A stretch of 64,000 bases of DNA, taken from assembly GCA_022709565.1 (NCBI GenBank), contig JAKLIO010000001.1, positions 4,368 to 68,367 on the forward strand. Reading direction: 5' to 3'. The stretch is from Patescibacteria group bacterium. GTDB lineage: Bacteria > Patescibacteriota > Minisyncoccia > Moranbacterales > GWC2-37-73. Below are positions 3,737 to 56,504 of this stretch, piece by piece. The translations under genes and the position numbers were made by a program. Positions within the stretch are counted from its first letter, which is position 1; every line of letters starts with the position of its first letter. The notes under the pieces are model-generated. The model was given only the letters and a program-made list of their open reading frames with translations. It was not told where the DNA came from and did not search any database.

Positions 3737-4144
3737 CTAACATCCACTTGGAGCAGTAAGACCGCCATATACACTTAATGTCCAGGCACTATTGCAAGCA
3801 GCCAATGGGTGCCCTGCCAATGTGACAGTGACAGTCGGATCAGATGTGGAACAATCAAATGTTGCCGCATATGTAACACCTGTTGCTTTTAAGTCAGCCG
3901 CAGTAGGAAGATTGCCAACTGAACCTATGGAACAAATTTCTGCACCTTCAGTAGTATTAAAAGTTGCATTTGTATCATCACAACATGTTGTTAATGATGC
4001 TTTTAAACTTGCGAGAGTCTGTTTTGTTGTTGCCGCTGTAGCTTTATTTCTTGCACTGCTAGTGCTAACCAAAATAACCCCAGCCAAGATTCCGATGATC
4101 GCAATTACAATCAGAAGCTCGATCAACGTGAAACCTTTTTTCAT
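3737..4144 (-). CDS. type IV pilin (PilA-like), paralogue 1
   Basis: Starts MKKGFTLIELLIVIAIIGILAGV and has six Cys including the C-terminal ..APSGC. It is about 75% identical by eye to the 4240..4680 pilin. Confidence 0.85.
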   Translation of the reverse strand: MKKGFTLIELLIVIAIIGILAGVILVSTSSARNKATAATTKQTLASLKASLTTCCDDTNATFNTTEGAEICSIGSVGNLPTAADLKATGVTYAATFDCSTSDPTVTVTLAGHPLAACNSAWTLSVYGGLTAPSGC

Positions 4145-5000: not shown

Positions 5001-5456
5001 TTATTCACAGCCATTCAAAAGCATGCTGCAAACGACATAGCTAGTTCCATCAGTAATTCTAAAAGTATAAGTACCCGCCGCCCATGAGCCCGTTGTTCCA
5101 GCATCATATGACCATCCGGTTTTCGTAGCTATATTAGGCCACAGTACATTACTGTGCCCCTCCGCAGCACTTGTATACCCGGCCTGAGCCCAACATATAA
5201 CTTCTCCGGCAACAGGAGTTGTTTTAACAAACCCACCATCATCTTGACACGTCACCAATTCCGGCAAAACACTAGCTGCGCTCGTCAGCGCCGAAGCTCT
5301 TTTTGATTTATCAATAGAACTTTTCATACTAACAGTCACCACGCCAGCCAAAATACCGATAATTGCAATTACAACCATAAGTTCAATCAACGTAAATCCT
5401 CTCCTGCCAATACGCGCGAATTTTTTGTTATAGATTTTCAAAATATTTTTTTTCAT
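5001..5456 (-). CDS. type IV pilin-like protein
   Basis: Carries RRGFTLIELMVVIAIIGILAGV and has a divergent C-terminal domain. Confidence 0.8.
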   Translation of the reverse strand: MKKNILKIYNKKFARIGRRGFTLIELMVVIAIIGILAGVVTVSMKSSIDKSKRASALTSAASVLPELVTCQDDGGFVKTTPVAGEVICWAQAGYTSAAEGHSNVLWPNIATKTGWSYDAGTTGSWAAGTYTFRITDGTSYVVCSMLLNGCE

Positions 5457-7904: not shown

Positions 7905-7963
7905 CTTGCCCTTTTAAATTCCACTAAAAGCGGATTCCGACAAGTCGAAGAATTTAACAGGGT
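7905..7963 (-). repeat. hairpin-family element immediately upstream of the pilT start
   Basis: The minus-strand sense reads ACCCTGTTAAATTC...GGAATTTAAAAGGGCAAGCAAACATG. It belongs to the same family as the elements at 11707, 43541, 45665 and 45899. Confidence 0.5.
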
Positions 7964-11040: not shown

Positions 11041-11146
11041 TTTTTTGTTGCCCGAGTTAATGTTTTAATTCCCTGAAAGCAATTAAACAAAAACTGCGCT
11101 GGCTTTTAAAATTTAATTAAAAAAATTAAACATGTTGCCGAAATGA

Positions 11147-11706: not shown

Positions 11707-11747
11707 CTTGCCCCGTTAAACCCGCCTTTAGCGGATATTAAACTGGG
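11707..11747 (-). repeat. hairpin-family element between pilM and the pilN-like gene
   Basis: The minus-strand sense reads TCCCAGTTTAATAT CCGC taaag GCGG GTTTAACGGGG CAAGAAAAAATG. It has an outer stem plus an independent apical stem. Confidence 0.55.
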
Positions 11748-11789
11748 ATAAATTTTTATTTTGTTTATTTTTTATTATATTAAATTTTT

Positions 11790-16232: not shown

Positions 16233-16454
16233 TTATTTCACAAAATAATCAATACTCTTTTTGTAAAGTTTAGCGAATTTTTTCACTTCCAAAATATCCA
16301 ATCTATATTCTCCCGATTCGACACGAGAAATATAAGACTGCGGTCGCTTCATTGCCTTAGCCACATCAATCTGCCGAAGACCCGATTCAAGTCGGGCTTT
16401 TTTCATCCTTTCAATAAAAAGGGCATATTCTTTTGTGCGTATTGTTCTACCCAT
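16233..16454 (-). CDS. XRE-family helix-turn-helix transcriptional regulator
   Basis: RLESGLRQIDVAKAMKRPQSYISRVESGEYRLD is a classic Cro/C1-type HTH. The gene lies 14 nt upstream of the T5orf172 gene. Confidence 0.85.
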   Translation of the reverse strand: MGRTIRTKEYALFIERMKKARLESGLRQIDVAKAMKRPQSYISRVESGEYRLDILEVKKFAKLYKKSIDYFVK

Positions 16455-16481
16455 ATACTACCAGCGTATATTCAAAAAATC

Positions 16482-16502
16482 AATATCTAAAATTTGGATA
16501 TT
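16482..16502. promoter_or_regulatory. candidate operator in the divergent promoter region
   Basis: Inverted repeat AATATC-N9-GATATT lies between the HTH gene start (16454) and the 16511 start. Confidence 0.4.
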
Positions 16503-16510
16503 GTGCTAGT

Positions 16511-17047
16511 ATGGTAAAAACAATAAATTTTAATTTTATGCTGAAAATATCTTTTCTGTTTCCAATATTTGCAATAGCATTTTTATCTTTGGTGATAATG
16601 GCTCTGGCGGTTTTTTATAAAGTAAAAACCAGCAAATGGCCATATTTAAAAAAGGATTCTTTACTGACAGAAGCGGAAAGAAAATTTTACCTTGTTTTGT
16701 TGGAAACTATCGGAAATGATTATTTAATATTTTCCAAAGTTAGAATGGCGGATTTACTTTATTTGCCAAAGATGAACAACAGCCAATATTATCATTACCA
16801 AAATAAAATTCAGTCTAAACATGTTGATTTTTTGATTTGTGATAAAGAAAATATTAAACCACTATTAGTAGTTGAATTGGACGATTCATCTCATCTTAAG
16901 ATTGATAGGATTTTAAGAGATGAGCTAGTTAATGAGATTTTTAAAAACGCAAAGCTTCCTATTTTTCATGTAAGAGCTTCTGCCAACTACGAAAAGGAAT
17001 CGTTATTAAGTCAAATTAAAAGTAACCTATCTGCCACATTTGATTAA
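16511..17047 (+). CDS. membrane-anchored DUF2726 protein (PD-(D/E)xK-like nuclease fold)
   Basis: I place the start at ATG 16511 (MVKTINF..). The protein has a TM (FLFPIFAIAFLSLVIMALAVF) followed by ..EAERKFY...KHVDFLICDKENIKPLLVVELDDSSH..RD. Confidence 0.65.
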   Translation: MVKTINFNFMLKISFLFPIFAIAFLSLVIMALAVFYKVKTSKWPYLKKDSLLTEAERKFYLVLLETIGNDYLIFSKVRMADLLYLPKMNNSQYYHYQNKIQSKHVDFLICDKENIKPLLVVELDDSSHLKIDRILRDELVNEIFKNAKLPIFHVRASANYEKESLLSQIKSNLSATFD

Positions 17048-17122
17048 CCAACCAGCTTTGACTATATCGTATATTAGTGCTAATTTTTAACTAATCAATA
17101 ATAATTAAACAATAAAAAAAAT

Positions 17123-17938
17123 ATGGAAGATTTATTTGTAGGTTTAGTTTTAATCTCTCTGATTTGTTTTTTGCTTAGCTGGATTATCCCCAATACTTTT
17201 TCACCTCTGTTTAAAAATAAACTTTCGAAAGGAAAAATCAGGTTAGTTTTTGGATTATCTACAATCGCATTTTTTATTTTATTTGGAATGATTTCCGATA
17301 CTAAACATCCCTTACCGAAAAATCAAGAAGTTTCTACTTCCCAAAATAACGCACAATCTGCCAATTCTCAAGAAAAAAAAGTAGAAACGAAGCAATTAAG
17401 CGCAGAAGAAATTGCGAAGAAAGAAGCCGAAGATAAGGCCAAGCAAGAAGCATTGGCAAAGCCTCATTTTAATGACGGAAATTATGAAGTTGGTACAGAT
17501 ATTCAGCCTGGAACATATAGAACACGCAAAGGCTCATCTGGATGTTACTATGCTCGACTTAAGGGATTTAGTGGTTCGTTAGGAGATATAATTTCCAACG
17601 AAAATACCTACTATCCTGCAGTTGTGACAATTGAATCAACAGATAAAGGTTTTAAATCTTCAGGCTGCGGAACTTGGACGCAAGACCTTTCCGCAATAAC
17701 AACTGAACAAACTACATTCAATGACGGAATTTTTATTGTCGGCACTGATATTTTGCCAGGAACTTATAAAAGCAGTGGTAGTGATGGTTGCTATTATTCA
17801 AGATTAAAAGGATTCACAGGTTCACTAGGAAATATAATTGCCAATGAAAACACTGACACATCTGCAATTGTAACTATTTCCTCAACCGATAAAGGATTCA
17901 AGTCTTCTGGTTGTGGTACATGGACCAAAACAAAGTAG
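17123..17938 (+). CDS. membrane-anchored protein with two ~85-aa tandem Cys-containing repeats
   Basis: Has an N-terminal TM and a KE-rich linker. The block GTD I.PGTY....GS.GCYY.RLKGF.GSLG.II.NENT....VTI.STDKGFKSSGCGTW then occurs twice. Confidence 0.6.
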   Translation: MEDLFVGLVLISLICFLLSWIIPNTFSPLFKNKLSKGKIRLVFGLSTIAFFILFGMISDTKHPLPKNQEVSTSQNNAQSANSQEKKVETKQLSAEEIAKKEAEDKAKQEALAKPHFNDGNYEVGTDIQPGTYRTRKGSSGCYYARLKGFSGSLGDIISNENTYYPAVVTIESTDKGFKSSGCGTWTQDLSAITTEQTTFNDGIFIVGTDILPGTYKSSGSDGCYYSRLKGFTGSLGNIIANENTDTSAIVTISSTDKGFKSSGCGTWTKTK

Positions 17939-17999
17939 ACTTCTTGACTTTTGCCATAAATAAGGCTACATTAAACTGATTTATCAATCAGTTTTTTGT

Positions 18000-18782
18000 A
18001 TGAAAAAAGGACTCAATAACGCTATTAAAAAATACCAACAAAGCCAAACATCGCTTGAAGCCTATCAGGCTATTTCTGATTTTGTAAAAATAATCATGGC
18101 AGTTCCCGAATTTATTGAGCAAGTCGAAAATGAAGGCGAAAAAATACGCCTTGCACAAAAGGAACTCAATGCTGATAAAGGTTGGAATTATGGTTTGAAA
18201 GGTAAGGAACTAAAACAGCACAATGAACGCCGAGCAAGAAAATCCGAAGCTCTACATCAACTAGACCCTATGTTTCCATTGCAAAATCTATACAGTGTTC
18301 ATTGTGGAGTTCAGCCTAAAAATATAACCGATAATTCCGATTGGCTGTTTCATAGATTTAGCCCTGATGAGCCATTGCCAGAAGCAGATAAAAAAGAATA
18401 TCAAGGATTTATTGATAAACTTTATAAAAAAATATTGCCGTTTCTGAACAAAGAAGAAACGCCAGATTTTGATTTTGATTTTAATAAAAGCCTTTTATAT
18501 TTCCAAGAAAAAGAAATTCACATCTCGCTTAAAAACGATAAGACCAATGCCCACTATATTTTGGAACATATTTTTAAATCCAAAGATTTAAGCCAACAAT
18601 TTCCTTTTTCTGAAATAGCCGAAGATACTTTTAAAGAAACTAATGATAACTGGCGAAAATACTATCGGGCTTGTAAAGATATAAACGATAAAGTTTACAA
18701 AGCTACTAAAATTGATGACTTTTTAGAGTATTCGAGTGGCAAAACCGCTTGGGTAAAAATCAACGAAAAATATCTTAAATAA
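18000..18782 (+). CDS. hypothetical protein (260 aa)
   Basis: This is a long ORF followed by a terminator at 18833. No family was recognised. Confidence 0.55.
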   Translation: MKKGLNNAIKKYQQSQTSLEAYQAISDFVKIIMAVPEFIEQVENEGEKIRLAQKELNADKGWNYGLKGKELKQHNERRARKSEALHQLDPMFPLQNLYSVHCGVQPKNITDNSDWLFHRFSPDEPLPEADKKEYQGFIDKLYKKILPFLNKEETPDFDFDFNKSLLYFQEKEIHISLKNDKTNAHYILEHIFKSKDLSQQFPFSEIAEDTFKETNDNWRKYYRACKDINDKVYKATKIDDFLEYSSGKTAWVKINEKYLK

Positions 18783-18832
18783 AGCAATTACGGCTTTACG
18801 GATAAAATAGCGTAAACGCTTTATTAGAAAAT

Positions 18833-18861
18833 GGCACTACAAATCGTAGCGCCGTTTTTTT
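18833..18861 (+). terminator. rho-independent terminator
   Basis: GGCACTAC aaatc GTAGCGCC G TTTTTTT. Confidence 0.55.
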
Positions 18862-19038
18862 ATGTCTTACAAATTTAGCTTTGAGCTAAGAGAAAAACTG
18901 ATTGACTATTTTTTGCGAAAACATCAGGTCGAGATTTCGCAAGATAAAGCCGACGAATATTTAGATTCGATGGCTGATTTATATTGCGCGTTTAGCCAGA
19001 GAAACGCCAAAGATAAATTTTCACCAGCGAAGCGGTGA
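18862..19038 (+). CDS. hypothetical small protein (58 aa)
   Basis: My own translation is MSYKFSFELREKLIDYFLRKHQVEISQDKADEYLDSMADLYCAFSQRNAKDKFSPAKR. It falls below the track cutoff. Its 3' end overlaps the 18999 hairpin. Confidence 0.3.
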   Translation: MSYKFSFELREKLIDYFLRKHQVEISQDKADEYLDSMADLYCAFSQRNAKDKFSPAKR

Positions 19039-19057
19039 AAATTTTCGTGGCGTTCTC
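18999..19057 (+). other. long imperfect hairpin upstream of the Rep gene (candidate rolling-circle origin, or a terminator)
   Basis: GAGAAACGCCA..AAATTTTCACC agcgaagc GGTGAAAATTT..TGGCGTTCTC. It has about 21 paired positions in two helices and an 8-nt loop, and ends 43 nt before the Rep ATG. Confidence 0.4.
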
Positions 19058-19100
19058 TTCTTAACTTGATTATAACCTCACTTAAACAGAAAACAATTTT

Positions 19101-19835
19101 ATGATATATACTGAAAAAATAATTATTTCTGGAGACATTTTAGAATATTATCAATATTCTAAGCCATTATTTAGGGAATTTAAAAAAAAGAAAAAAGAAA
19201 AATTGCCTTGCGAGCCGAAGCAATTGGAGCTAGATTTTTCCATACCCGATACTGCTACTGGCAAACGGGACGATAATATTGCCCGTACTCGCACAAACAT
19301 ACGGCGACTTGTTAATTCCAATCAAGATTTTGATAAATTTGTCACCTTAACTTTTGCAGAAAACATGCAAGATATTAAAATAGCCAATCGTCATTTTAAT
19401 AAATTTATTATGCGTATAAGCTACCGCTATCCTGATTTAAAATATCTCGCAATTATCGAATTTCAAAAGCGTGGAGCTGTCCATTATCATTTTTTATGTA
19501 ATTTGCCTCATATTAAAAATTCTATTCTTTCAGATATTTGGGGACACGGATTTGTCAAAATAAACAAGATCAAGAATGTCACAAATCTTGGAGCTTATGT
19601 TTGCAAATACTTAAGCAAGGACGGCAATAACAAAAAAATGTTTCGCAAGAAGAAATATTTTTGTTCTAAAAACTTAGAGCAACCAAACAAATTTTTTGAT
19701 AACAAAACTATACAAACGCTAAAAAATTTCTATAACCTTTCTTCTGCAAAGCCAGCTTTTCAAACAACTTTTTCCAATGAATACCTCAAGGAAGTTGTAT
19801 ATAAACAGTTCAACCTAAAAAATCTAGCCCCTTGA
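19101..19835 (+). CDS. HUH-superfamily rolling-circle replication initiator (phiX174 gpA / Microviridae VP4-like motifs)
   Basis: Motif I is FVTLTF, motif II is AVHYHFL (HUH), and motif III is GAYVCKYLSKD. The Y-x-x-K-Y pattern matches phiX174 YVAKYVNK. Confidence 0.75.
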   Translation: MIYTEKIIISGDILEYYQYSKPLFREFKKKKKEKLPCEPKQLELDFSIPDTATGKRDDNIARTRTNIRRLVNSNQDFDKFVTLTFAENMQDIKIANRHFNKFIMRISYRYPDLKYLAIIEFQKRGAVHYHFLCNLPHIKNSILSDIWGHGFVKINKIKNVTNLGAYVCKYLSKDGNNKKMFRKKKYFCSKNLEQPNKFFDNKTIQTLKNFYNLSSAKPAFQTTFSNEYLKEVVYKQFNLKNLAP

Positions 19836-19884
19836 TTTTATCTCTTAATTCCGCTAAGTTATGAATATCTAAATATTGAATATT

Positions 19885-28581: not shown

Positions 28582-28944
28582 ATGCCTGCGTTTTTGAAGA
28601 ATAATTTAGAAGAAAGAACAACTAATTTTAGCAAAAAGGTTGTAATTTTTTTAAAGACAATAAAAAAAGACAATTTGAGTTTGCCTCTAATTAACCAGCT
28701 CGTAAGATCAGCTACTAGCATAGGCGCTAACTATTTTGAAGCTGGTGGATCCTGTTCAAAAAAAGACTTTAAAAATAAAATATATATTTGCAAAAAAGAA
28801 TGCAGAGAAACTAAATATTGGCTGGAGATTTTAGCCGAAGCTCATCCTGAATCTAAGAATATATGCAGGGAGCTATGGAAGGAAGCTCATGAATTAACTT
28901 TAATTTTTTCTAAAACAATCCTGACACTAGAAAATAAAAAATGA
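28582..28944 (+). CDS. four-helix-bundle protein (23S rRNA intervening-sequence protein family)
   Basis: Carries the family signature ..QLVRSATSIGANYFEAGGSCSKKDFKNKIYICKKECRETKYWLEIL... Confidence 0.85.
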   Translation: MPAFLKNNLEERTTNFSKKVVIFLKTIKKDNLSLPLINQLVRSATSIGANYFEAGGSCSKKDFKNKIYICKKECRETKYWLEILAEAHPESKNICRELWKEAHELTLIFSKTILTLENKK

Positions 28945-32870: not shown

Positions 32871-34253
32871 CTAACTTCTTTGATAGACATCCTCATATCT
32901 GACAATGTCATCCTCTTCCAAATAGTCTCCGGTTTGGACTTCGATAATTTCCAGATTGGTTTTCCCCGGATTGCCCAAGCGATGTTTGGTGCCTACCGGT
33001 ATGAAAGTGCTTTCATTTTCTTCAAGTGTCAACAAATCTTCGCCATGAACAATCTCGGCCGTGCCTTTGACAACCACCCAGTGCTCCGCCCGCCTGTTGT
33101 GCGATTGCAAACTCAGTTTCGCTCCGGGATAAACTGTGATTTTTTTGACTTTGTGATTATCTTCGTCAATCAGAACCTCGTATTTCCCCCATGGACGGTA
33201 GCCGATCACATTATCAGAAAGTTCCGGATAATTTTTTTCTTTGAGATATTCAACCACTTTTTTCACGCCATCATTGCTCTCGCCCATTTTTTGCACCAAA
33301 ATACTGTCATTGTTTTCAATCACAATCACGTCCTCAAGACCCGAGGTGACAATCAAACCATCGTTGACCGAATAAGCAAAAACATTTTTTGAGTCAATGG
33401 AAACATGTTTCGGATTTTCATCTTTTTTTCTTCCCAAGATTTCTGCCAGAACATCAAAACTGCCCACATCACTCCAATCAAAATCACCTTCAAAAGTTAT
33501 TAGCTTGTTTGATTTTTCAGCAATAGCATAATCAATTGCAATTGCCGGCAAATTCTGGAAATCCTTTAAAAAAGTATCGTAATCTTTTTCAAACAAGGAA
33601 TAGAATTCAGGCGCATGATTTTTCATTTCGTCAGCCAAAGTTTTTATATTGAAAAGATACATGCCGGCGTTCCATAGATATTCCCCGGAAGCAAAAAATT
33701 CTTCGGCTGTTTTTTTATCCGGCTTTTCCTTAAATGTTTCAACCTTGTAATAATCGCCTAGATTCTCTCCTTTTTTTATGTATCCAAAACTAGTGTCCGG
33801 CTTCGTTGGAACAATTCCTATTGTGCCGATATTGTCACCTATTTTTGAAAGCGCATTTTTGGCAATTTTAGCATAAGCCGGTCGATTGCCAATATAATGA
33901 TCGGAGTGTACTTCGATAATCGGCGCCGTTTCGTCTATTTTTATTACATCTTTAAGATATTTCGCAGCCAAAGCCAAGGCTGGCATATTATTCAAGCTTT
34001 TTGGTTCTTTGAGCACCTGACTTTCCAAAAAATCTGGATAGATTTCTCTGATCTGATTCAGGACATTGTAGTAATTATCTCCGTTAGTCACGAAATATAT
34101 ATTGGTTTCCGGCACAACCTCTTTCATTCTCAAAAACGTCTCTTGCAGAAGCGACTTGTCGCTATAAAGTTTCAGAAATTGCTTAGGAAAATTTTTTCTC
34201 GACAGCGGCCAAAGGCGTGTGCCTGATCCACCGCAAAGGATGATACTATGCAT
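32871..34253 (-). CDS. manC: mannose-1-phosphate guanylyltransferase / mannose-6-phosphate isomerase (bifunctional type)
   Basis: Starts MHSIILCGGSGTRLWPLSRKNFPKQF. The C-terminal cupin contains SLQSHNRRAEHWVVVKGTA. Confidence 0.88.
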   Translation of the reverse strand: MHSIILCGGSGTRLWPLSRKNFPKQFLKLYSDKSLLQETFLRMKEVVPETNIYFVTNGDNYYNVLNQIREIYPDFLESQVLKEPKSLNNMPALALAAKYLKDVIKIDETAPIIEVHSDHYIGNRPAYAKIAKNALSKIGDNIGTIGIVPTKPDTSFGYIKKGENLGDYYKVETFKEKPDKKTAEEFFASGEYLWNAGMYLFNIKTLADEMKNHAPEFYSLFEKDYDTFLKDFQNLPAIAIDYAIAEKSNKLITFEGDFDWSDVGSFDVLAEILGRKKDENPKHVSIDSKNVFAYSVNDGLIVTSGLEDVIVIENNDSILVQKMGESNDGVKKVVEYLKEKNYPELSDNVIGYRPWGKYEVLIDEDNHKVKKITVYPGAKLSLQSHNRRAEHWVVVKGTAEIVHGEDLLTLEENESTFIPVGTKHRLGNPGKTNLEIIEVQTGDYLEEDDIVRYEDVYQRS

Positions 34254-37320: not shown

Positions 37321-37451
37321 ACCCTGTTAAATAAGATTTGAATTTCATTGGGAAACTCTGACTTACCGTTATTATATTTTTATTCTCTAAATTCCAACCC
37401 TGTTCCAGTCTTCAAATCTTAATTTTGACAAGCAAGATTATTTAACAGGGT
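37321..37451 (-). repeat. long-range hairpin abutting the secG start codon
   Basis: ACCCTGTTAAATAAGATTTGAA (37321-37342) pairs with TTCAAATCTT (37411-37420) and with TTATTTAACAGGGT (37438-37451). The sense strand ends ..TTTAACAGGGTAAATG. Confidence 0.5.
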
Positions 37452-37550: not shown

Positions 37551-38486
37551 TTAAACACTAAGTTCACCTATTTTTTTCTTAAACTGTTCGAAAATCTTCG
37601 GACCATGCGGATCAGGCAGGAAAATCAGCGCGTCATCATCGGCATAGACCATGCTTCCCTCTTGATGAGTTTTCGGATTTTTCATGATTCTTTGTTTTTC
37701 TGTTTTCTTAAGCATTTTTTCAATCCAGCCAAAAGACAAAATAATTTCACCCAAATTTCTGATGGCTTTGGAAAAAGCCGAATCGGAAATTATTTTCAGC
37801 GGAGGAATTTCAGAGATTCCGTAGGCAGGCTTTATTGATTTGATCCAAGAATTTCTTATTTGAAAACGCTTATAAGTTTCAAATCCATATATTGGAAAAA
37901 GAAACATATACTCGCTGGCAGAATACAGATCTTTCGTGCTTATTTCCAAAGACTCATCGGTTATAAAAAAATTGAGACAGACCCGGTCGGAAATTTTATT
38001 TCCGTGCCTTCTTTTTCTAAAAAGATGCAGCAGCAGTGTTGCCAATGTTCGTCCTGTCCAAATTTTACCCTGCTTGAAAACAAGCAAAATATCCAGATCG
38101 CTTTTGGCTTTGGCATTTTTCATGGCCAGCGCTCCGGTCACTCCAATCATCTTGATGAAAGGGACAAATCTGAGCAAATGAGAAGCTTTTAAAAGAATTT
38201 TCATCTTGCCCATGGAAATTTTATTATTCTTGATGCGCCTATCCACTAAAAATTTCCGTCCTTTCAAAAAGTAGAATCCGTTATGTTTTTCTATAAATTC
38301 AGCCAATTTTTCATCGGCCAGTTGTTTTGTAATTTCAGCCAGATTAATTTGCAATTCTTGTTTGTTATCCAAAAAATAATCCGTTCTGATTAAATATTTC
38401 CATATTTCAAAAGCCGTCAGCGGGTAGTCAAATCCGTCGTAATATATGATCGTCGCCAAAATGTGTTTATTAAGCTTGCTGGACAT
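37551..38486 (-). CDS. hypothetical protein, possible nucleotidyltransferase fold
   Basis: GVTGALAMKNAKAKSDLDILLV resembles the pol-beta-type NTase G[SG]...DxD motif, but the match is weak. Confidence 0.4.
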   Translation of the reverse strand: MSSKLNKHILATIIYYDGFDYPLTAFEIWKYLIRTDYFLDNKQELQINLAEITKQLADEKLAEFIEKHNGFYFLKGRKFLVDRRIKNNKISMGKMKILLKASHLLRFVPFIKMIGVTGALAMKNAKAKSDLDILLVFKQGKIWTGRTLATLLLHLFRKRRHGNKISDRVCLNFFITDESLEISTKDLYSASEYMFLFPIYGFETYKRFQIRNSWIKSIKPAYGISEIPPLKIISDSAFSKAIRNLGEIILSFGWIEKMLKKTEKQRIMKNPKTHQEGSMVYADDDALIFLPDPHGPKIFEQFKKKIGELSV

Positions 38487-42119: not shown

Positions 42120-43451
42120 TTATTTATTAATTTTTCTGATTAATGATAGCGGCTGAATATCCTTTTTATTAATTTTAACATAATATAGTTTCTCGTGCCC
42201 ACCGTGCGCCGAAACCACTTTATTTTTACCTTCATCATAAATAGCCAGAATTTTGGCCGGAATATTCTTCTCAGGCGTCACAATTTCAATTTTATCTTCC
42301 TTGCGCAGAGCATTGTGGCTTTTAACTTTAAGTTCGCCGCCGTTAGCCTCTAGAACTTCACCGACAAACTGAAACGCGTCACTGGTTTGCTGACCGGCGA
42401 AACTATGCTCAGGTTCATTGCCCAAAAGAAAGCCTTCCGTATATCCCCGATTAGCCAGCTTGTCCAATTCCTGTTCTGACCATTTTTGAATTTTTTTAAT
42501 TTCGGCTGAACTTTTTTTCGCTTCGATTGCATCAATCACTTTTCTGTAGGCGCGCACTGTGTTGGCTACATAATAGGCGCTCTTGGTGCGTCCTTCGATT
42601 TTGAAAGCCATGACTCCCGCTTTTCTAAGCTCGGTTAAATGTTTTATCAAATTCAAATCCTTGCTGTTAAAAAAATATGTCCCATGTGAATCTTCCTCCA
42701 GTTCTACCTCCGTACCACTTTGCATTTCAGTTACTATAATATTTTTGTATTTTTTCGCATTTTGTTTGGAAATTTTATCATTGTGATTTGTTTGAAAATT
42801 GGAAATTGAAAATTGATCATTGGGGCGGTACGCCCATCTGCACGGTTGCGTGCAGCCTCCTTCATTCGCGCTTTGGTTTGACATCCACTTGCTCAAGATG
42901 CAGCGGCCGGAATAGCTCATACACATGGCGCCATGGACAAAATATTCCAATTCCAGTTTGGGAACTCTTTTGTGAATTTCCTGAATATCTTCCAGAATGA
43001 CTTCGCGCGCTAAAATAACTCTTTTGACACCCGCGGCATGCCAAAATTTGGCCGCGCGCCAGTTAGTCGTGTTAGCCTGCGTGCTGAGATGGATGTCCAC
43101 GCCCGGCAAATATTTTTTAGCCAATTCTATAATTCCCGGATCAGAAATGATCACGCCGTCGATTTTTATTTTCCTGAGAAATTGGAGATGTTTTTCCACA
43201 ACCAGCAAATGATAGTTATGCGCGTAGATATTCACCGTCACAAATATTTTCTTGCCCCGCGCATGCGCGTATTCAGCCGCCATCGCCAAATCTTTTTCGG
43301 AAAAATTGTTGACTCTGGCCCGCATGGAAATGTCCGGCGTGCCGGCATAAACCGCATCCGCCCCGTATTCTATGGCATATTTAAGCTTTTCCAGACTCCC
43401 CGCCGGCGCCAATAATTCTATTCGATTCTTGGAACTTTTTACAATTCTCAT
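42120..43451 (-). CDS. U32-family peptidase-like protein (with an in-frame insertion)
   Basis: Reads IELLAPAGSLEKLKYAIEYGADAVY..., ..CMSYSGRC.. and ..GGCTQPCRW. Confidence 0.85.
   Translation of the reverse strand: MRIVKSSKNRIELLAPAGSLEKLKYAIEYGADAVYAGTPDISMRARVNNFSEKDLAMAAEYAHARGKKIFVTVNIYAHNYHLLVVEKHLQFLRKIKIDGVIISDPGIIELAKKYLPGVDIHLSTQANTTNWRAAKFWHAAGVKRVILAREVILEDIQEIHKRVPKLELEYFVHGAMCMSYSGRCILSKWMSNQSANEGGCTQPCRWAYRPNDQFSISNFQTNHNDKISKQNAKKYKNIIVTEMQSGTEVELEEDSHGTYFFNSKDLNLIKHLTELRKAGVMAFKIEGRTKSAYYVANTVRAYRKVIDAIEAKKSSAEIKKIQKWSEQELDKLANRGYTEGFLLGNEPEHSFAGQQTSDAFQFVGEVLEANGGELKVKSHNALRKEDKIEIVTPEKNIPAKILAIYDEGKNKVVSAHGGHEKLYYVKINKKDIQPLSLIRKINK
42762..42822 (-). repeat. low-complexity element inserted in frame in the U32 gene
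   Basis: The coding strand reads ..CAATTTTCAATTTCCAATTTTCAAACAAATCACAAT.. and encodes DQFSISNFQTNHND. It is homologous to, and in the same frame as, the recG insert. Confidence 0.7.
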
Positions 43452-43540
43452 AGTGTTTTGACAAGCTTCAGAATACCCCTAATTGCCCTAATAGTCAATA
43501 AAAACATGCCTATAAGCAGACATGCTTTAAAATAATTTTA

Positions 43541-43580
43541 CCCCGTTAAATTTTCACAAAGTGAAACTATTTAACTGGGG
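43541..43580 (-). repeat. hairpin-family element
   Basis: The plus strand reads CCCCGTTAAAT TTTCAC aaa GTGAAA ct ATTTAACTGGGG. Confidence 0.6.
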
Positions 43581-43633
43581 TGTTTTAAAAGTGTTACTTA
43601 ACTAGTTACTGAACACTTTATTATTACTTCTCT

Positions 43634-43662
43634 ATAATACCCCCATTCCACATCCCTTTCAA
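43634..43662 (-). promoter_or_regulatory. putative sigma70-type promoter (conserved cassette)
   Basis: The minus strand reads GCCTTGAAA-GGGATGTGGAATGGGGG-TATTAT (17-nt spacer). It belongs to the same cassette as the promoters at 48979 and 53417. Confidence 0.55.
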
Positions 43663-43712
43663 GGCATAAGAAACAGGCTCCTTCGAAGCTTTTTTTGTTG
43701 AAGTTTTTGTAA

Positions 43713-44291
43713 TTATCTATAAATCCAGTACTCCACTTCTTCCATATCTTCTCCATTTTGTTTTTTCGATATAAGTTCCCTCATCGCTTTTCCGCCTAAA
43801 GATTCTGGGATTTTCCTGCTAGCAATATTTTCTTTTGCAACAGGATATAGCAAATATTCATATTCTATGTTCTTATCAGCCCACTCTTTAAGGCCCGCAA
43901 CCGCTTCTCGCCCATATTTATTTCCATGAGCTGATTTTTTAATCCAAATTCCTAATTCGGGAGTTTTTGTATCAAGATGATGAATACCTCCCCCGCCTAA
44001 AAATTCGTTTGTTTCCTTATTGAAAATGCTTACCGCAAGATCTAACCCGTTTTTAATACGCTCTCTTGCATCATTGATAAAGTTTTCAGTATCTTCTATT
44101 TGTTTTGGCGTTGACGGAAACATGAATTTTGTCACTTCATCAGTAAACTCTGAAAAAATCATATCCTTATATTTTAAAGATACAGGTTTTAGAGTAAGCC
44201 GCTCGGTTTCAATTTCAACATTAAGCAGATTTTCTATTGGTCGCTTATTTTCTCTTAATTGTTCCGGATTCATATTTTTATTATTTAACAA
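43713..44291 (-). CDS. GNAT-family N-acetyltransferase (RimJ/RimL-like)
   Basis: Has ..TERLTLKPV.. at the N-terminus and an acetyl-CoA-type block (..GNKYGREAV...). Confidence 0.75.
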   Translation of the reverse strand: MLNNKNMNPEQLRENKRPIENLLNVEIETERLTLKPVSLKYKDMIFSEFTDEVTKFMFPSTPKQIEDTENFINDARERIKNGLDLAVSIFNKETNEFLGGGGIHHLDTKTPELGIWIKKSAHGNKYGREAVAGLKEWADKNIEYEYLLYPVAKENIASRKIPESLGGKAMRELISKKQNGEDMEEVEYWIYR

Positions 44292-44333
44292 CTCTGCCCA
44301 TTTTTTAGTATCTTAAGAGCCCTACTGGAATCA

Positions 44334-45206
44334 TTACGGCTGAAGAATATCTTCCGTCCGCCCATTGACCGATATGACAACTTCTTTAACAGTCGGGAAC
44401 TGCCTGAGCGTATCCTCAATTTGCGATCTGATGGCGCTTACCCGGCAAGAACCGCCGACAGCCTGCTCCAATTGTCCGTTAAAATCAACCCGGGCTTTGC
44501 CGGCCTGTATGCTGATGCTGTTCAGTTTTACCGATGGGTTGATGGATGTGAAATAACCCGCTGATTTTTCTTCCAGTGTTGGACCGACCAAAAGAAGTTC
44601 GATGGCTGCTCGCGCTACCGCCTGAGTTTTCGCAATCACCCGTTCGCGCGGAGCTGTGACTGAACAATCCATTTCCGTGCGGCTTTCTTCGTGGCTGAAA
44701 AATACTTTGACAACCGTGGTTTCTCCTTGTGAAAAAACAACCGGCACGGCGAAAGAATCGTCCAATTCTTCCAAATCGGAAGCATTGGCTTTCAGCAAGA
44801 TCAAATTTCCCGACTTAGCCGTTTTGCGGTCAAAAACCAGAGTGGCTTTAAAAGGCACGAAATTTTCTGTCATCCACTCGCCCTCAGCCTCCGCAATTCC
44901 GCTAGCCAATTCTTTTCCGTTTTCATCCACGAGACGCACCGGAAAACTGGCCTCGAAAAACCAACTGCCCCGCGCTTCGCCGCTTATTTCCAACGGACTG
45001 CTGATTTCAGCTCCGGCTTGCGGCTTTGTCACTCGGATAAGATTTTCATAATTTTTTTCCGATTCTTTCTTCTTCTCCTCTTGAACTATTACTGGCGATT
45101 TGACTTGCGGAGCAGCTTCCTTTTTTTCGGATTTAGAAAAAACAACATAGGCCGCGACGGCCACTAACACAACCGCCAAAAATATTAACCAGATATATTT
45201 TTTCAT
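44334..45206 (-). CDS. secreted protein with an Ig-like (Gmad2-type) domain and a GerMN domain
   Basis: Has an N-terminal TM, then ..ISSPLEISGEARGSWFFEASFPVRL.., then ..ELLLVGPTLEEKSAGYFTSI... Family names are from memory. Confidence 0.55.
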   Translation of the reverse strand: MKKYIWLIFLAVVLVAVAAYVVFSKSEKKEAAPQVKSPVIVQEEKKKESEKNYENLIRVTKPQAGAEISSPLEISGEARGSWFFEASFPVRLVDENGKELASGIAEAEGEWMTENFVPFKATLVFDRKTAKSGNLILLKANASDLEELDDSFAVPVVFSQGETTVVKVFFSHEESRTEMDCSVTAPRERVIAKTQAVARAAIELLLVGPTLEEKSAGYFTSINPSVKLNSISIQAGKARVDFNGQLEQAVGGSCRVSAIRSQIEDTLRQFPTVKEVVISVNGRTEDILQP

Positions 45207-45217
45207 ATTTATATTAT

Positions 45218-45652
45218 TTACTCGCGATCCGCTTTTATTCTTTTTTTAAAAATTACGGACGCGATGAAAATTATTACGAAAAAAATGCAACCCATAACGC
45301 AGGTCGGAAGTCCGAAAAAATAGGCTCCGAAACCGCTCTGCCAAAGTAGCGGAATTTCCCCTATCGAAAAATAGCCGGCAAAAATTATTCCGGCCAACGA
45401 AACGCCAAACAGCACTTTTGCTAAATATTCCACATTCCATTTGCCCAGCGCTAAAATTATGGAGAAAATAAAAAGCAAGCAAAACATTGCAAATCCGAAA
45501 TAGCAAGCCGGCATTCCTAAAAAAAGCGGGCAAGTTTCCCCGAAGGCGCAGGTTGCTGAGAAGAATTTCACTCCGCTCATATAGCCGGAAAACAAAACTC
45601 CGACCATGGAAGCTATCAAAAAGAAAATTTTAAAATTTTTATATGTTTCCAT
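45218..45652 (-). CDS. 4-TM membrane protein with conserved Cys pairs (possibly VKOR-like)
   Basis: Contains SATCAFGETCPLFLGMPACYFG and GLPTCVMGC. The functional call is tentative. Confidence 0.5.
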   Translation of the reverse strand: METYKNFKIFFLIASMVGVLFSGYMSGVKFFSATCAFGETCPLFLGMPACYFGFAMFCLLFIFSIILALGKWNVEYLAKVLFGVSLAGIIFAGYFSIGEIPLLWQSGFGAYFFGLPTCVMGCIFFVIIFIASVIFKKRIKADRE

Positions 45653-45664
45653 ATTTTTTACTTG

Positions 45665-45701
45665 CCCCGTTAAATTCCGCTTGCGGACTATTTAACTGGG
45701 G
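45665..45701 (-). repeat. hairpin-family element abutting the 45652 start
   Basis: The plus strand reads CCCCGTTAAAT TCCG cttg CGGA ct ATTTAACTGGGG. The sense strand ends ..TTTAACGGGGCAAGTAAAAAATATG. Confidence 0.6.
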
Positions 45702-45727
45702 TTTTTTATTTATTAAACGGTCTAAGC

Positions 45728-45889
45728 CTAAAATCTCGCCGCAACGAAGACTCCGATGTAGTAAGGCCAAAGCACAATTGCCAAAACACCTTTCCAAAAG
45801 GCCAGTTGCAAAAAGCCGATAGTGAATAGCCAGCCCGCCGCCCATAATAAACCAATGGAACAGCCGTTTTCGATTTTTATTCTTTCCAT
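45728..45889 (-). CDS. hypothetical small membrane protein (53 aa)
   Basis: My own translation is MERIKIENGCSIGLLWAAGWLFTIGFLQLAFWKGVLAIVLWPYYIGVFVAARF. It is preceded by the conserved ..TTTAACGGGGCAAGAATATATG context. It falls below the track cutoff. Confidence 0.45.
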   Translation of the reverse strand: MERIKIENGCSIGLLWAAGWLFTIGFLQLAFWKGVLAIVLWPYYIGVFVAARF

Positions 45890-45898
45890 ATATTCTTG

Positions 45899-45938
45899 CC
45901 CCGTTAAATTTCCACGAAGTGAAACTATTTAACTGGGG
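45899..45938 (-). repeat. hairpin-family element abutting the 45889 start
   Basis: The plus strand reads CCCCGTTAAAT TTCCAC gaa GTGAAA ct ATTTAACTGGGG. Confidence 0.6.
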
Positions 45939-45960
45939 TTTTATATTTTATAATTATTTA

Positions 45961-46446
45961 TTAAATCTGAGCGAAGATAATCATATAATTATTGCCGTAT
46001 TTTTTGGCGCATTTTGGACAATAGGCATAATGAATATAATAGTCTTTGGCTTTTTTGCCTTGAGCTTCTAAATACTCATTCATCTCTTTGATGAATTTTG
46101 GAACATCCCTATACGCACCGGCATAGACTTTAGCCACAAATGTTCCGGAAATATTCTCATTGTTAGCATTTGGCACAGTGCCGGTCACAGATAAATATAT
46201 TTCCGATTTGAAAGCGCTGGGGTCATGGAATAGCATCAATACATCTTCAATATCAGTTTCCACCGTTTTGGCATTTTCTGACATCTGGCACATTTTGGTA
46301 ATTTTTTGACCAATCATTGGATAAAACGGGATATGGAAAAATGTCGGAATAGTTTCCTTGATAAATTTTTTATTTTCCCAATTAAATGTCTGCCCGTCCC
46401 ATTTTTCTGGATTAAACTTGGGACAACAAATTTTTTCTTCGTTCAT
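45961..46446 (-). CDS. hypothetical protein with an N-terminal CC motif and a C-terminal CPKC motif
   Basis: This 161-aa ORF reads MNEEKICCPKF... and ...YCPKCAKKYG. No family was recognised. Confidence 0.55.
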   Translation of the reverse strand: MNEEKICCPKFNPEKWDGQTFNWENKKFIKETIPTFFHIPFYPMIGQKITKMCQMSENAKTVETDIEDVLMLFHDPSAFKSEIYLSVTGTVPNANNENISGTFVAKVYAGAYRDVPKFIKEMNEYLEAQGKKAKDYYIHYAYCPKCAKKYGNNYMIIFAQI

Positions 46447-48397: not shown

Positions 48398-48943
48398 TTA
48401 TCTTAAAATATATTCCCAGCCTGGTTGCCAGGCCTTGGTTTTTCTCCAGTCTTCCGTGAAAGCCTGCTTCCAAGTTTTATCTTTGAGTAAAACATCTAAT
48501 GACAATTGCGGCGCTTTATGAGCAACAATGGCAACATTTTTTCCGTCATAATTCTTTTTCAAAAAATCAAGAAAGTCGGCAATTCTATTTTTGACATCTT
48601 CATAGCTTTCGCCATCGGGAAATTTTTCCGTAGCATGTTCTTCTTGCAAGGGTTCGACTGTCTCGGAAGACTGGCCGTTATATATTCCATAATTGCATTC
48701 CCGAAGCCGTTCATCCGCAATAATAGGCACTTCCCCTTCAAAAGTTAGCTCTGCTGACTTTGTCGCTCTTTTTAAATCAGAACAAAAAACAACATCGAAT
48801 TTCTGGTCTTTAATTTTGTCTTTAAGGGCAATCGATTGCTCAATTCCCAGATCGGAAAGCTCAGCATCAGACCAGCCGGAAGATATTCCGGCTTCATTAT
48901 CAACAGTTGTCCCATGAACAAAATAGATTATTTTAATACTCAT
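48398..48943 (-). CDS. histidine-phosphatase (phosphoglycerate-mutase-like) family protein
   Basis: Has the family blocks IYFVHGTT.DN..G..SGW.D..LS..G..Q and ..SDL.RA. Val replaces the Arg of the canonical RHG motif. Confidence 0.7.
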   Translation of the reverse strand: MSIKIIYFVHGTTVDNEAGISSGWSDAELSDLGIEQSIALKDKIKDQKFDVVFCSDLKRATKSAELTFEGEVPIIADERLRECNYGIYNGQSSETVEPLQEEHATEKFPDGESYEDVKNRIADFLDFLKKNYDGKNVAIVAHKAPQLSLDVLLKDKTWKQAFTEDWRKTKAWQPGWEYILR

Positions 48944-56159: not shown

Positions 56160-56504
56160 ATGACAAGAGTAAAACGCGGCGTTGCCGCCAGTAAAAGAAG
56201 AAAGAATGTGCTTGATGCCGCCAAGGGTTTCCGCTGGCGCCGCAGCAAAAACTATGTTGCCGCTAAAGAAGCTCTGCTCAAAGCCGGCAAATACGCGCAC
56301 AGAGATCGCCGCAAGAAAAAAGGCATCAACAGATCTCTTTGGATATTGAGACTCAACAATGCCGTCAGGATGCTTGAACTGACTTACAGCAAATTTATCG
56401 CCAATCTCAAATCAAAGCAGATAGAAATAGACCGCAAGGTGCTTTCGCAAATGGCTGTTGAAAATCCGGCAGTATTTGCAAAATTTATTGAAAAAATAAA
56501 ATAG
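56160..56504 (+). CDS. rplT: 50S ribosomal protein L20
   Basis: Reads MTRVKRGVAASKRRKNVLDAAKGFRWRRSKNY..AKEAL.KA..YA.RDRR.KK and ends ..LSQMAV..PAVF. Confidence 0.92.
   Translation: MTRVKRGVAASKRRKNVLDAAKGFRWRRSKNYVAAKEALLKAGKYAHRDRRKKKGINRSLWILRLNNAVRMLELTYSKFIANLKSKQIEIDRKVLSQMAVENPAVFAKFIEKIK

Follow-up and report, generated by a model that had tools for sequence, protein, structure and literature searches.

Repetitive extragenic palindromic (REP) sequences, the REP doublets forming hairpins (REPINs) and the Rickettsia palindromic elements (RPEs) are described systems resembled by the hairpins analyzed here, which were found in a stretch of 64,000 nucleotides (nt; the window) of contig JAKLIO010000001.1 from a Patescibacteria group bacterium of the Moranbacterales. 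Known REPs can stabilize the upstream mRNA, as was found in work on E. coli. The hairpins share with REPs and REPINs a short (about 35-40 nt) imperfect palindrome, bulges that define the strand and many, mostly intergenic and presumably transcribed copies. A mostly extragenic, short imperfect palindrome is repeated here in 5-7 copies in the window and at no fewer than 119 loci overall (mostly 8-kb contig pieces, labelled L001 upward). Whereas REP families are usually lineage-specific and REPs lie after stop codons, the core of the hairpin is common to several phyla and its copies in Patescibacteria lie just upstream of start codons. A GTAG-like conserved tetranucleotide at the 5′ side was not found; the conserved flank is a 3′ tail of the form YARR(C).

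RPEs are palindromic repeats found inserted in frame in housekeeping genes of unrelated kinds, whose products thereby gain a conserved peptide (PMC10969869). Like RPEs and transposable elements of the miniature inverted-repeat type (MITEs), the hairpins are palindromic repeats of a reduced genome and occur both in intergenic DNA and as in-frame insertions, here in rmlD and tpiA. Since the hairpin is 35-60 nt long compared to about 100-150 bp for RPEs, the likeness is one of behavior and not of membership. The cross-phylum occurrence and the strong bias towards positions before start codons also differ from RPEs, and the hairpins lack the combination of terminal inverted repeats and direct repeats that marks MITEs. 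Based on these comparisons and the results given below, the hairpins are regarded with moderate confidence as a REP/RPE-like mobile family, partly domesticated in Patescibacteria.

Two further systems have to be considered. Integron recombination sites of the attC type are typically 57-141 nt long, and arrays of them without integrases are known (clusters of attC sites lacking integrases, CALIN). The hairpin is much shorter, has an extra G+C clamp outside the box, and occurs in conserved operons and inside genes; it resembles attC in the folded hairpin, in extrahelical bases on one arm and in local co-oriented arrays between small genes in some Desulfobacterota loci. With the RNase III sites of phage T7 and the 5′ stabilizer stem-loops of Gram-positive bacteria it shares a stable hairpin that separates cistrons or borders the initiation region and a conservation of structure rather than of loop sequence, and an RNase J gene is located within the window. 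Unlike the hairpin, none of those processing and stabilizing elements is a repeated mobile sequence whose stem is conserved in sequence.

Architecture of the hairpin and its copies in the window

In minus-strand sense the unit has the form CCCC-A-GTTAAAT-(AG)-apical stem-loop-ATTTAAC-GGGG, followed by CAAG or TAAA. It consists of a G+C clamp of 4 bp, a bulged A on the 5′ arm, an A+U-rich helix of 7 bp (GUUAAAU/AUUUAAC) and an apical stem of 4-6 bp, which in most copies is preceded by a second bulge of two nucleotides (AG) on the same arm. The bulged A was kept in 136 of 143 copies across the family, and the helix also occurs with double changes (GTGAAAT/ATTTCAC, GTGGAAT/ATTCCAC and GTTGAAT/ATTCAAC). 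The unit is about 35-60 nt in length. An earlier note on this DNA had given the end of the unit as GGGG(C/T)AAG; the GGGG was confirmed, whereas the following 4-5 nt are better described as YARR(C), being TAAA, CAGG or CAAG. The left flanks are variable. A minimal variant was found at 2882-2916 of locus L131 (CCCCAG-AAGCAAAGCCTCGCTTGCT-ACGGGGCAGG), 36 nt upstream of a complete copy; the clamp, the AG/AC junction and the tail are kept and the GTTAAAT/ATTTAAC helix is missing.

Four clear copies with a common outer stem were found on the minus strand (H1 to H4, Table 1), exactly at the positions first reported. A covariance model, of the kind proposed in the earlier note, was built from 39 related copies and recovered the four copies with 46-61 bits (E = 4e-15 to 8e-11). 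Their predicted folds range between -14.7 and -17.6 kcal/mol (z = -2.6 to -4.0). Allowing up to two mismatches, the 5′ arm motif was counted 16 times in the window compared to 7.3 expected occurrences, a number reached by none of 100 shuffles.

Table 1. Hairpin copies and the associated small gene in the window.
Feature	Position	Strand	Support
H1, hairpin with CAAG tail	45661-45701	-	covariance model 60.9 bits, E = 4e-15; fold -16.7 kcal/mol, z = -4.0
H2, hairpin with CAAG tail	45895-45938	-	covariance model 56 bits; fold -15.7 kcal/mol
H3, hairpin with TAAA tail	43537-43580	-	covariance model 55.2 bits; fold -17.6 kcal/mol
H4, diverged hairpin with CAAG tail, pilM-pilN spacer	11707-11748	-	covariance model 45.8 bits; fold
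H5, family arms, longer apical region, CAAG tail, pilT leader	7905-7963	-	fold -16.7 kcal/mol
Decayed or diverged hairpin, pilN-pilO spacer	about 11050-11103	-	fold -15.4 kcal/mol, z = -2.8
Probable disrupted copy before secG	37321-37451	-	fold -29.4 kcal/mol, z = -2.3
Gene of a 53-aa two-helix membrane protein, between H2 and H1	45728-45889	-	445 homologues

The minus-strand sequence of H1 (45665-45701) is CCCCAGTTAAAT-AG-TCCGCAAGCGGA-ATTTAACGGGG. It begins 27 nt past the stop codon of a gene for a membrane protein of 53 amino acids (aa), and its GGGG lies 12 nt ahead of the ATG of a gene for a 144-aa membrane protein (45218-45652). H2 (45899-45938, apical stem TTTCAC/GTGGAA) is located 23 nt past the stop codon of a Bact_hydrolase gene and 9 nt ahead of the ATG of the 53-aa gene. 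H3 (43541-43580, apical stem TTTCAC/GTGAAA) lies at the end of a GNAT gene unit without an adjoining start codon; the ATG of the U32 peptidase gene (43451) follows 90 nt downstream, beyond a promoter-like match (TTGACT-N17-TATTCT). For H4 (11711-11747) the sequence is TCCCAGTTTAAT..GTTTAACGGGG with the apical stem CCGC/GCGG, and the ATG of pilN is found 9 nt downstream.

Of the copies initially described as degenerate, H5 in the pilT leader is a true family member. By eye its apical region looks like two short stem-loops, while the single-sequence fold is clear for the basal helix only. It is located downstream of a TGGTATAAT promoter box and the end of its tail is 5 nt ahead of the pilT ATG. 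The hairpin between pilN and pilO is diverged and terminates with ..AACTCGGGCAAC, followed after 7 nt by the ATG of pilO. What had been taken for a long-range version, ahead of secG, consists of the family arms as a perfect inverted repeat of 12 nt (ACCCTGTTAAAT/ATTTAACAGGGT) around about 107 nt including a TATAAT box. Its 3′ arm ends 3 nt ahead of the secG ATG, the covariance model scores its 3′ part weakly (10 bits), and it is probably a disrupted copy of the family. The reported closeness of the hairpins to start codons is correct for six genes (pilN, the gene starting at 45652, the open reading frame (ORF) starting at 45889, pilT, pilO and secG), whereas it does not hold for H3.

Two further candidates were rejected. 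One of them, at 46373-46422, is part of the Bact_hydrolase coding sequence and resembles the family by chance, since no residues are added compared to the Pfam profile. A covariance-model match at 23956-23991 corresponds to a tRNA-like T-arm.

The genes next to the copies are of ordinary kinds and belong to two groups besides secG. The first is a type IV pilus operon with pilM, pilN, pilO, pilB, a response regulator gene and pilT. The second is an accessory-type run of small genes coding for a methyltransferase, Bact_hydrolase, the 53-aa and 144-aa membrane proteins, a Germane/Gmad2 protein, a GNAT acetyltransferase and the U32 peptidase. The window DNA is 70-77% identical to that of the Moranbacteria loci L048 and L084.

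Distribution of the family

The exact 21-base core (CCCAGTTAAAT-N8-30-ATTTAACGGG) was searched in one genome per species, resulting in a minimum of 119 loci far beyond the window; about 6 chance matches would be expected for this search according to our own estimate, which is not the output of a tool. The core was found in many Desulfobacterota, in Cloacimonadota, in Moranbacteria and other Patescibacteria, in Omnitrophota, Nitrospinaceae, Neomarinimicrobiota, Bacteroidales and others. Relatives hold several copies per genome, for example UBA12142 with seven loci. In viral contigs, only three matches to the hairpin could be found. No Rfam 15 family matched the hairpins, neither in the whole window at the gathering threshold nor in 43400-46100 at the permissive threshold of E ≤ 10, and the searchable literature yielded no relevant account of the motif strings or of palindromic repeats of Patescibacteria, Desulfobacterota or Cloacimonadota. 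The hairpins of the window are copies of one short palindromic repeat family which is common to many anaerobic phyla.

Tandem direct repeats of 7-9 nt (e.g., AATACGA/ATACTAG and CTAAAAG) occupy many leaders and intergenic spacers of the window, among them those upstream of the genes 37551-38486, 56160-56504, 28582-28944, 32871-34253 and 48398-48943. In loci L084, L095, L057, L047 and L011/L060/L069 such repeats abut hairpin copies on either side (CATATAGC, CAGGGATC, TTTAGNCAC).

Signatures of mobile DNA

Mobility of the DNA is suggested by units nested in one another, by orthologous sites that lack a copy and by insertions in frame within genes. In L049, L103, L039 and L018/L025/L040 a whole unit with its tail interrupts the loop of a second copy, and the 3′ arm of that second copy comes after it. 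The hairpin resident between pilM and pilN has, in L128/L129, a 43-nt copy of a different sub-family embedded in its 3′ arm. Copies from Desulfobacterota and Cloacimonadota often sit in a loop that belongs to a larger hairpin, unrelated or composite (L017, L055, L099, L013), and in L001 a copy lies inside a TTACCGA...TCGGTAA repeat. As for REPs, no target duplication was evident at the nested insertions that were inspected.

The pilM-pilN site of L127 is empty and consists of an uninterrupted A/T-rich spacer. The copy in the pilT leader is present in the window, L122 and L129 and absent from L120, which is the closest relative (PilT 96.7% identical), as well as from L125, L126, L127 and L130. 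In the rmlD genes of L028, L037 and L081 an in-frame copy with a branched apical region adds 17-19 residues, encoding the peptide (Y/H/T)PVKS...FNGVK, which is missing from the RmlD of L062. A similar in-frame copy was found in tpiA of L024 directly ahead of the conserved IGAQN, where the Thermotoga TIM has a gap of 17 residues.

Three apical-stem sub-families (TGYGG-AKTA-CCRCA, TCGCC-AAA-GGCGA and TTTCAC-TTY-GTGRAA) recur across unrelated loci and genomes. An RNA-specific signature of G.U pairs was looked for in the apical stems of copies with a perfect core and was not seen, with 3 G.U pairs out of 172 on the sense and 7 out of 175 on the antisense strand. These stems are nearly pure Watson-Crick helices on both strands and therefore fit young DNA palindromes.

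A cognate REP-associated tyrosine transposase (RAYT) gene flanked by the hairpin, as expected for a REP family, was not found. No RAYT homologue was detected in 432 kb of Patescibacteria DNA, which derives from partial genomes and thus does not prove absence. RAYT-like Y1 transposase genes (Y1_Tnp) occur in three of about 84 non-Patescibacteria loci (L003, L102 and L116) and are not flanked by this hairpin, and a RAYT link was rejected. The inspected gene, that of L102, codes for a protein with a C-terminal helix-turn-helix and is bracketed by its own palindromic repeat TTTACCGATATCGGCCTTGAGCCGRAATCGGTAA (4060-4135 and 5075-5140). The TTACCGA...TCGGTAA repeat of L001 is related to this repeat.

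Small GIY-YIG nuclease genes adjoin tRNA-Asn in L015 (1400-2280) and L080 (340-940). The hairpin of L015 is followed by a duplicate of the tRNA's 5′ part, with the intact tRNA about 300 nt beyond, an arrangement such as the insertion of a GIY-YIG cassette into the tRNA gene would leave. Similar GIY-YIG genes were found in L108, L116 and L131.

Strain variation and comparison with attC sites

The 53-aa gene between H2 and H1 is real and widespread, with 445 homologues (E ≤ 1e-3) in several phyla, many of them 60-87% identical. Its neighborhoods vary among close relatives. In L131 the orthologous gene has other neighbors and is preceded by an H2-type hairpin with the apical stem TTCCAC/GTGGAA, in which a U.G pair is changed to C-G. 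No hairpin was found at the closest homologue (L141, 87% identical) or at the homologues in high-GC phyla. With one such relative and the hairpin missing at these homologues, a joint mobility of gene and hairpin as a cassette was rejected.

Among strains the hairpins are stable. H1 is identical in the strain-level contigs L145-L150, and H1 to H3 are unchanged in strain contigs from several samples. L145 is 98.5% identical to L146 and the window up to just past the stop codon of the Germane/Gmad2 gene. From 5335 in L145, compared to L146 and to the window from 44334 downwards, a canonical terminator and an MmeI-type restriction-modification gene replace the GNAT gene, H3 and the U32 peptidase gene in one strain. 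This is the sole strain-level rearrangement seen.

These observations bear on the possibility that the hairpin is a folded single-strand recombination site, analogous to attC, which marks the boundaries of shufflable gene units. Its arms GTTAAAT and ATTTAAC are words of the attC core sequences GTTRRRY and RYYYAAC. The conserved bulged A and the AG bulge are confined to the 5′ arm and the terminal part is variable, as in attC, while an unpaired central spacer is lacking and the geometry is different. Co-oriented arrays lie between small, often toxin-antitoxin-like genes (L039, L027), and the 53-aa gene has the same hairpin in the other neighborhood of L131. However, attC sites read 5′-RYYYAAC...GTTRRRY-3′ on both strands (PMC5027507), whereas the arm order is reversed in all copies (5′-GTTAAAT...ATTTAAC-3′). 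Because of this inverted order the hairpin is not an attC site, and both attC and Xer/dif were rejected on the same ground.

Other observations also count against an attC-like site. No integrase gene was noticed beside the arrays in the inspected loci, in a search that was not exhaustive, and the top Pfam families listed for the window and for 150 ORFs from the loci, mostly 8-kb pieces, included no tyrosine recombinase. Copies precede core genes (dnaK, enolase, pilN) in conserved operons, close homologues of the 53-aa gene occur without the hairpin, and the breakpoint between L145 and L146 falls outside the hairpins, just past the stop codon of the Germane gene. A recombination site of this kind is considered very unlikely.

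Conservation of the structure

In 39 Patescibacteria copies, which had been pre-selected for pairing, the basal helix is paired to 98.6%, and double compensatory changes were found in 5 of 11 pairs, which was reached by none of 500 shuffles. The orthologous copies at the pilM-pilN junction, a set not selected for pairing, gave a consistent picture. A hairpin is present in 10 of 11 relatives (PilM 61-88% identical), while the adjoining spacer cannot be aligned. The consensus structure is the same, with covariation in 5 of 16 pairs. A-U was changed to G.U and to G-C, GUU/AAC was changed to GCU/AGC, and the clamp has changes as well; the variants include GUUGAAU/AUUCAAC, a G.U intermediate and GCUAAAA/UUUAGC.

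With RNAalifold, the pilM-pilN alignment was calculated to fold at -16.1 kcal/mol on the sense strand (covariation term -1.03) and at -15.0 kcal/mol on the antisense strand (+0.45). The sense strand scores slightly better, and its G.U pairs are read as C.A mismatches on the other strand. The same asymmetry was found in nine relatives at the pilN-pilO junction, where the predicted hairpin is weak (consensus -3.0 kcal/mol) and contains many G.U pairs on the sense strand.

The apical segments were compared to their own shuffles. In Patescibacteria, 24 of 38 distinct segments fold better than the 5th percentile, compared to 6 of 81 outside Patescibacteria, where they are essentially unstructured. 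Selection on structure, for which the earlier note had argued from apical stems that differ and remain paired, is supported by the covariation in both sets, the first of which was pre-selected, and by the self-complementary apical segments. The retention of the pilM-pilN copy in nearly all relatives together with its compensatory changes suggests that retained copies probably act as leader RNA hairpins. They are most likely maintained as sense-strand structures working as RNA.

Position and orientation relative to genes

In Patescibacteria, an ATG opening an ORF was found 7-12 nt after the GGGG in 20 of 34 distinct copies, compared to 4.3% at random positions (p = 3e-19). In 28 of 37 cases the copy and the gene downstream of it point the same way. 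Outside Patescibacteria the downstream gene is co-oriented in 34 and opposite in 40 cases, and no preferred distance to start codons was observed.

The genes downstream of the Patescibacteria copies, named from their N-terminal sequences, include dnaK, enolase, pilin, pilT, prepilin peptidase and pilN; another codes for a Peptidase_S24 (LexA-like) protein. One copy lies 8 nt upstream of a tRNA-Asn gene.

A bias with respect to the replicating strand was rejected. The GC skew of the element strand is positive in 35 and negative in 35 cases outside Patescibacteria, and the excess within Patescibacteria (positive in 32 of 35) merely tracks the orientation of the genes. In L124-L126 two copies lie 6 kb apart in opposite directions, each with the ATG of its own gene 8-9 nt further on, which argues that orientation follows genes and not the replication fork.

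Translation initiation, termination and other regulatory readings

For the analysis of potential Shine-Dalgarno (SD) sequences, the 58 window genes with an ATG start were examined. An SD-like core (GGAG, GAGG or AGGA at -20 to -4) was found in four of them, and the 8 nt preceding the start codons of the window consist of 76% A+T. The rarity of the core and the A/T-rich leaders indicate that the organism initiates translation largely without SD pairing.

This result bears on the proposal that the hairpin is a dedicated cis-regulatory RNA which sequesters the G-tract as a ribosome binding site and thereby gates the translation of the downstream gene. The distance of 7-12 nt between GGGG and ATG, the covarying structure at orthologous sites and the slightly favored folding of the sense strand would agree with such a gate. 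The scarcity of SD-like cores does not, nor do the copy ahead of the tRNA-Asn gene, the copies inside rmlD and tpiA, the distance of 90 nt between H3 and the next ATG and the occurrence of the core in other phyla without fixed orientation or distance to genes. Furthermore, the hairpin has no conserved loop or junction able to sense a signal. A translational gate is considered unlikely, and the interpretation of the G-tract as a sequestered SD sequence in the earlier note was not upheld. The position of the GGGG overlaps the usual SD window and may make a weak contribution to initiation.

A role in termination would concern either antisense transcription, owing to the T-run that follows on the other strand, or the sense strand at gene ends, where the terminator would be of an unconventional kind. 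On the opposite strand of H1 and H2 the GGGG is followed by TTTTTTATTT and TTTTATATTTT, and H3 lies at the end of a gene unit before a promoter-like match. However, the sense-strand tail is YARR with A-rich sequence, so that the U-tract directly after a G+C-rich stem, which characterizes intrinsic (Rho-independent) terminators on the transcribed strand, is missing. Many family members have no A-rich upstream flank, and canonical terminators are present elsewhere in the genome and in relatives. Termination would also leave the cross-phylum stem sequence and the nested and in-gene copies unaccounted for. As an explanation of the family it is highly improbable; the antisense terminator suggested in the earlier note is plausible at occasional copies such as H1 and H2, not family-wide.

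A promoter was excluded because the gap of 4-9 nt between tail and ATG is too small; the spacing of the arms is variable as well, and other genes of the window carry ordinary TGnTATAAT boxes. A DNA uptake sequence was rejected, as single arms are not enriched and the arms come in pairs. An intercistronic or leader RNA role of the retained copies appears plausible.

Proposed origin and function

According to the favored explanation, a mobile hairpin family partly domesticated in Patescibacteria, the element would spread, or would have spread, as DNA into intergenic regions, into hairpin loops including those of its own copies, and occasionally in frame into genes. From the asymmetry of the bulges, the conservation of the stem sequence and the lack of an evident target duplication at the inspected nested insertions, we infer that the folded single strand could be recognized by a nuclease or transposase which binds hairpins. 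The copies that survive in Moranbacteria and other Patescibacteria are mostly co-oriented with the genes and end 7-12 nt before the start codon; they would be transcribed in leaders or intercistronic spacers. Old copies appear to preserve their structure by compensatory and G.U changes on the sense strand, from which a function as RNA seems most likely for the retained copies. The retained hairpin would then form a stable local structure at the upstream edge of an A-rich initiation region without SD sequence. It would insulate this region from upstream sequence and could shield the flanking mRNA ends from exonucleases.

Several points weigh against this explanation. No mobilizing enzyme was identified, and the RAYT-like gene of L102 has a different flanking repeat of its own. 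Outside Patescibacteria the copies within one locus are co-oriented (28 concordant compared to 1 discordant pair) despite the missing link to gene orientation or GC skew. The spacing of 7-12 nt goes beyond random insertion and subsequent tolerance; either the target must be preferred or the position positively selected. Several loci carry an old hairpin inherited vertically, so that function alone could explain much of the pattern in Patescibacteria. Finally, all evidence is comparative.

A more far-reaching version is that of a cross-phylum mobile module which is targeted to, or selected at, positions -8 to -12 of Patescibacteria start codons and serves initiation or the protection of mRNA ends. 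It would be a transposable leader hairpin which genes acquire and keep, and which is possibly exchanged between episymbiotic Patescibacteria and the anaerobes around them. In a variant, the element may be a mirror-polarity, attC-like single-strand recombination site. This version is judged decidedly unlikely.

If a partly domesticated mobile family is the correct explanation, one tiny hairpin with a core of 21 bases would have colonized many anaerobic phyla, including the ultra-small Patescibacteria, and would have been written into housekeeping proteins (RmlD and the tpiA product). It would represent a clean case of selfish palindromic DNA kept in gene leaders under SD-independent initiation, and could serve to trace the exchange of DNA between Patescibacteria and the organisms around them. 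It would also provide a tractable system for the effect of a structure 10 nt before the AUG on SD-independent initiation. Gene callers and screens for RNA motifs should mask or model the hairpin family.

Other features of the window

Genes for 23S rRNA intervening-sequence proteins (PF05635, four-helix bundle) were found as two ORFs in the window and also in L023, L027, L099 and L114. In loci carrying the hairpin they are often located inside polysaccharide biosynthesis clusters.

A segment of low GC content (0.33) on the plus strand (16433-21465), beside tRNA-Ser (21345-21432, minus strand), resembles an integrated element. It carries genes for a DUF2726 protein, for a rolling-circle Rep protein (PF23343 REP_ORF2-G2P, 19101-19835) and for a large serine recombinase (19876-21465), as well as two unknown ORFs.

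Downstream of tRNA-Arg (23783-23856), a segment at about 23880-24015 on the plus strand resembles the 3′ part of a tRNA (T-arm GGGATTCGATTCCTCCCAAGCGCA), with G+C-rich sequence of about 100 nt ahead of it. It was called by neither ARAGORN nor Rfam and may be a tRNA remnant, a duplication of an att site or a tRNA with an insertion.

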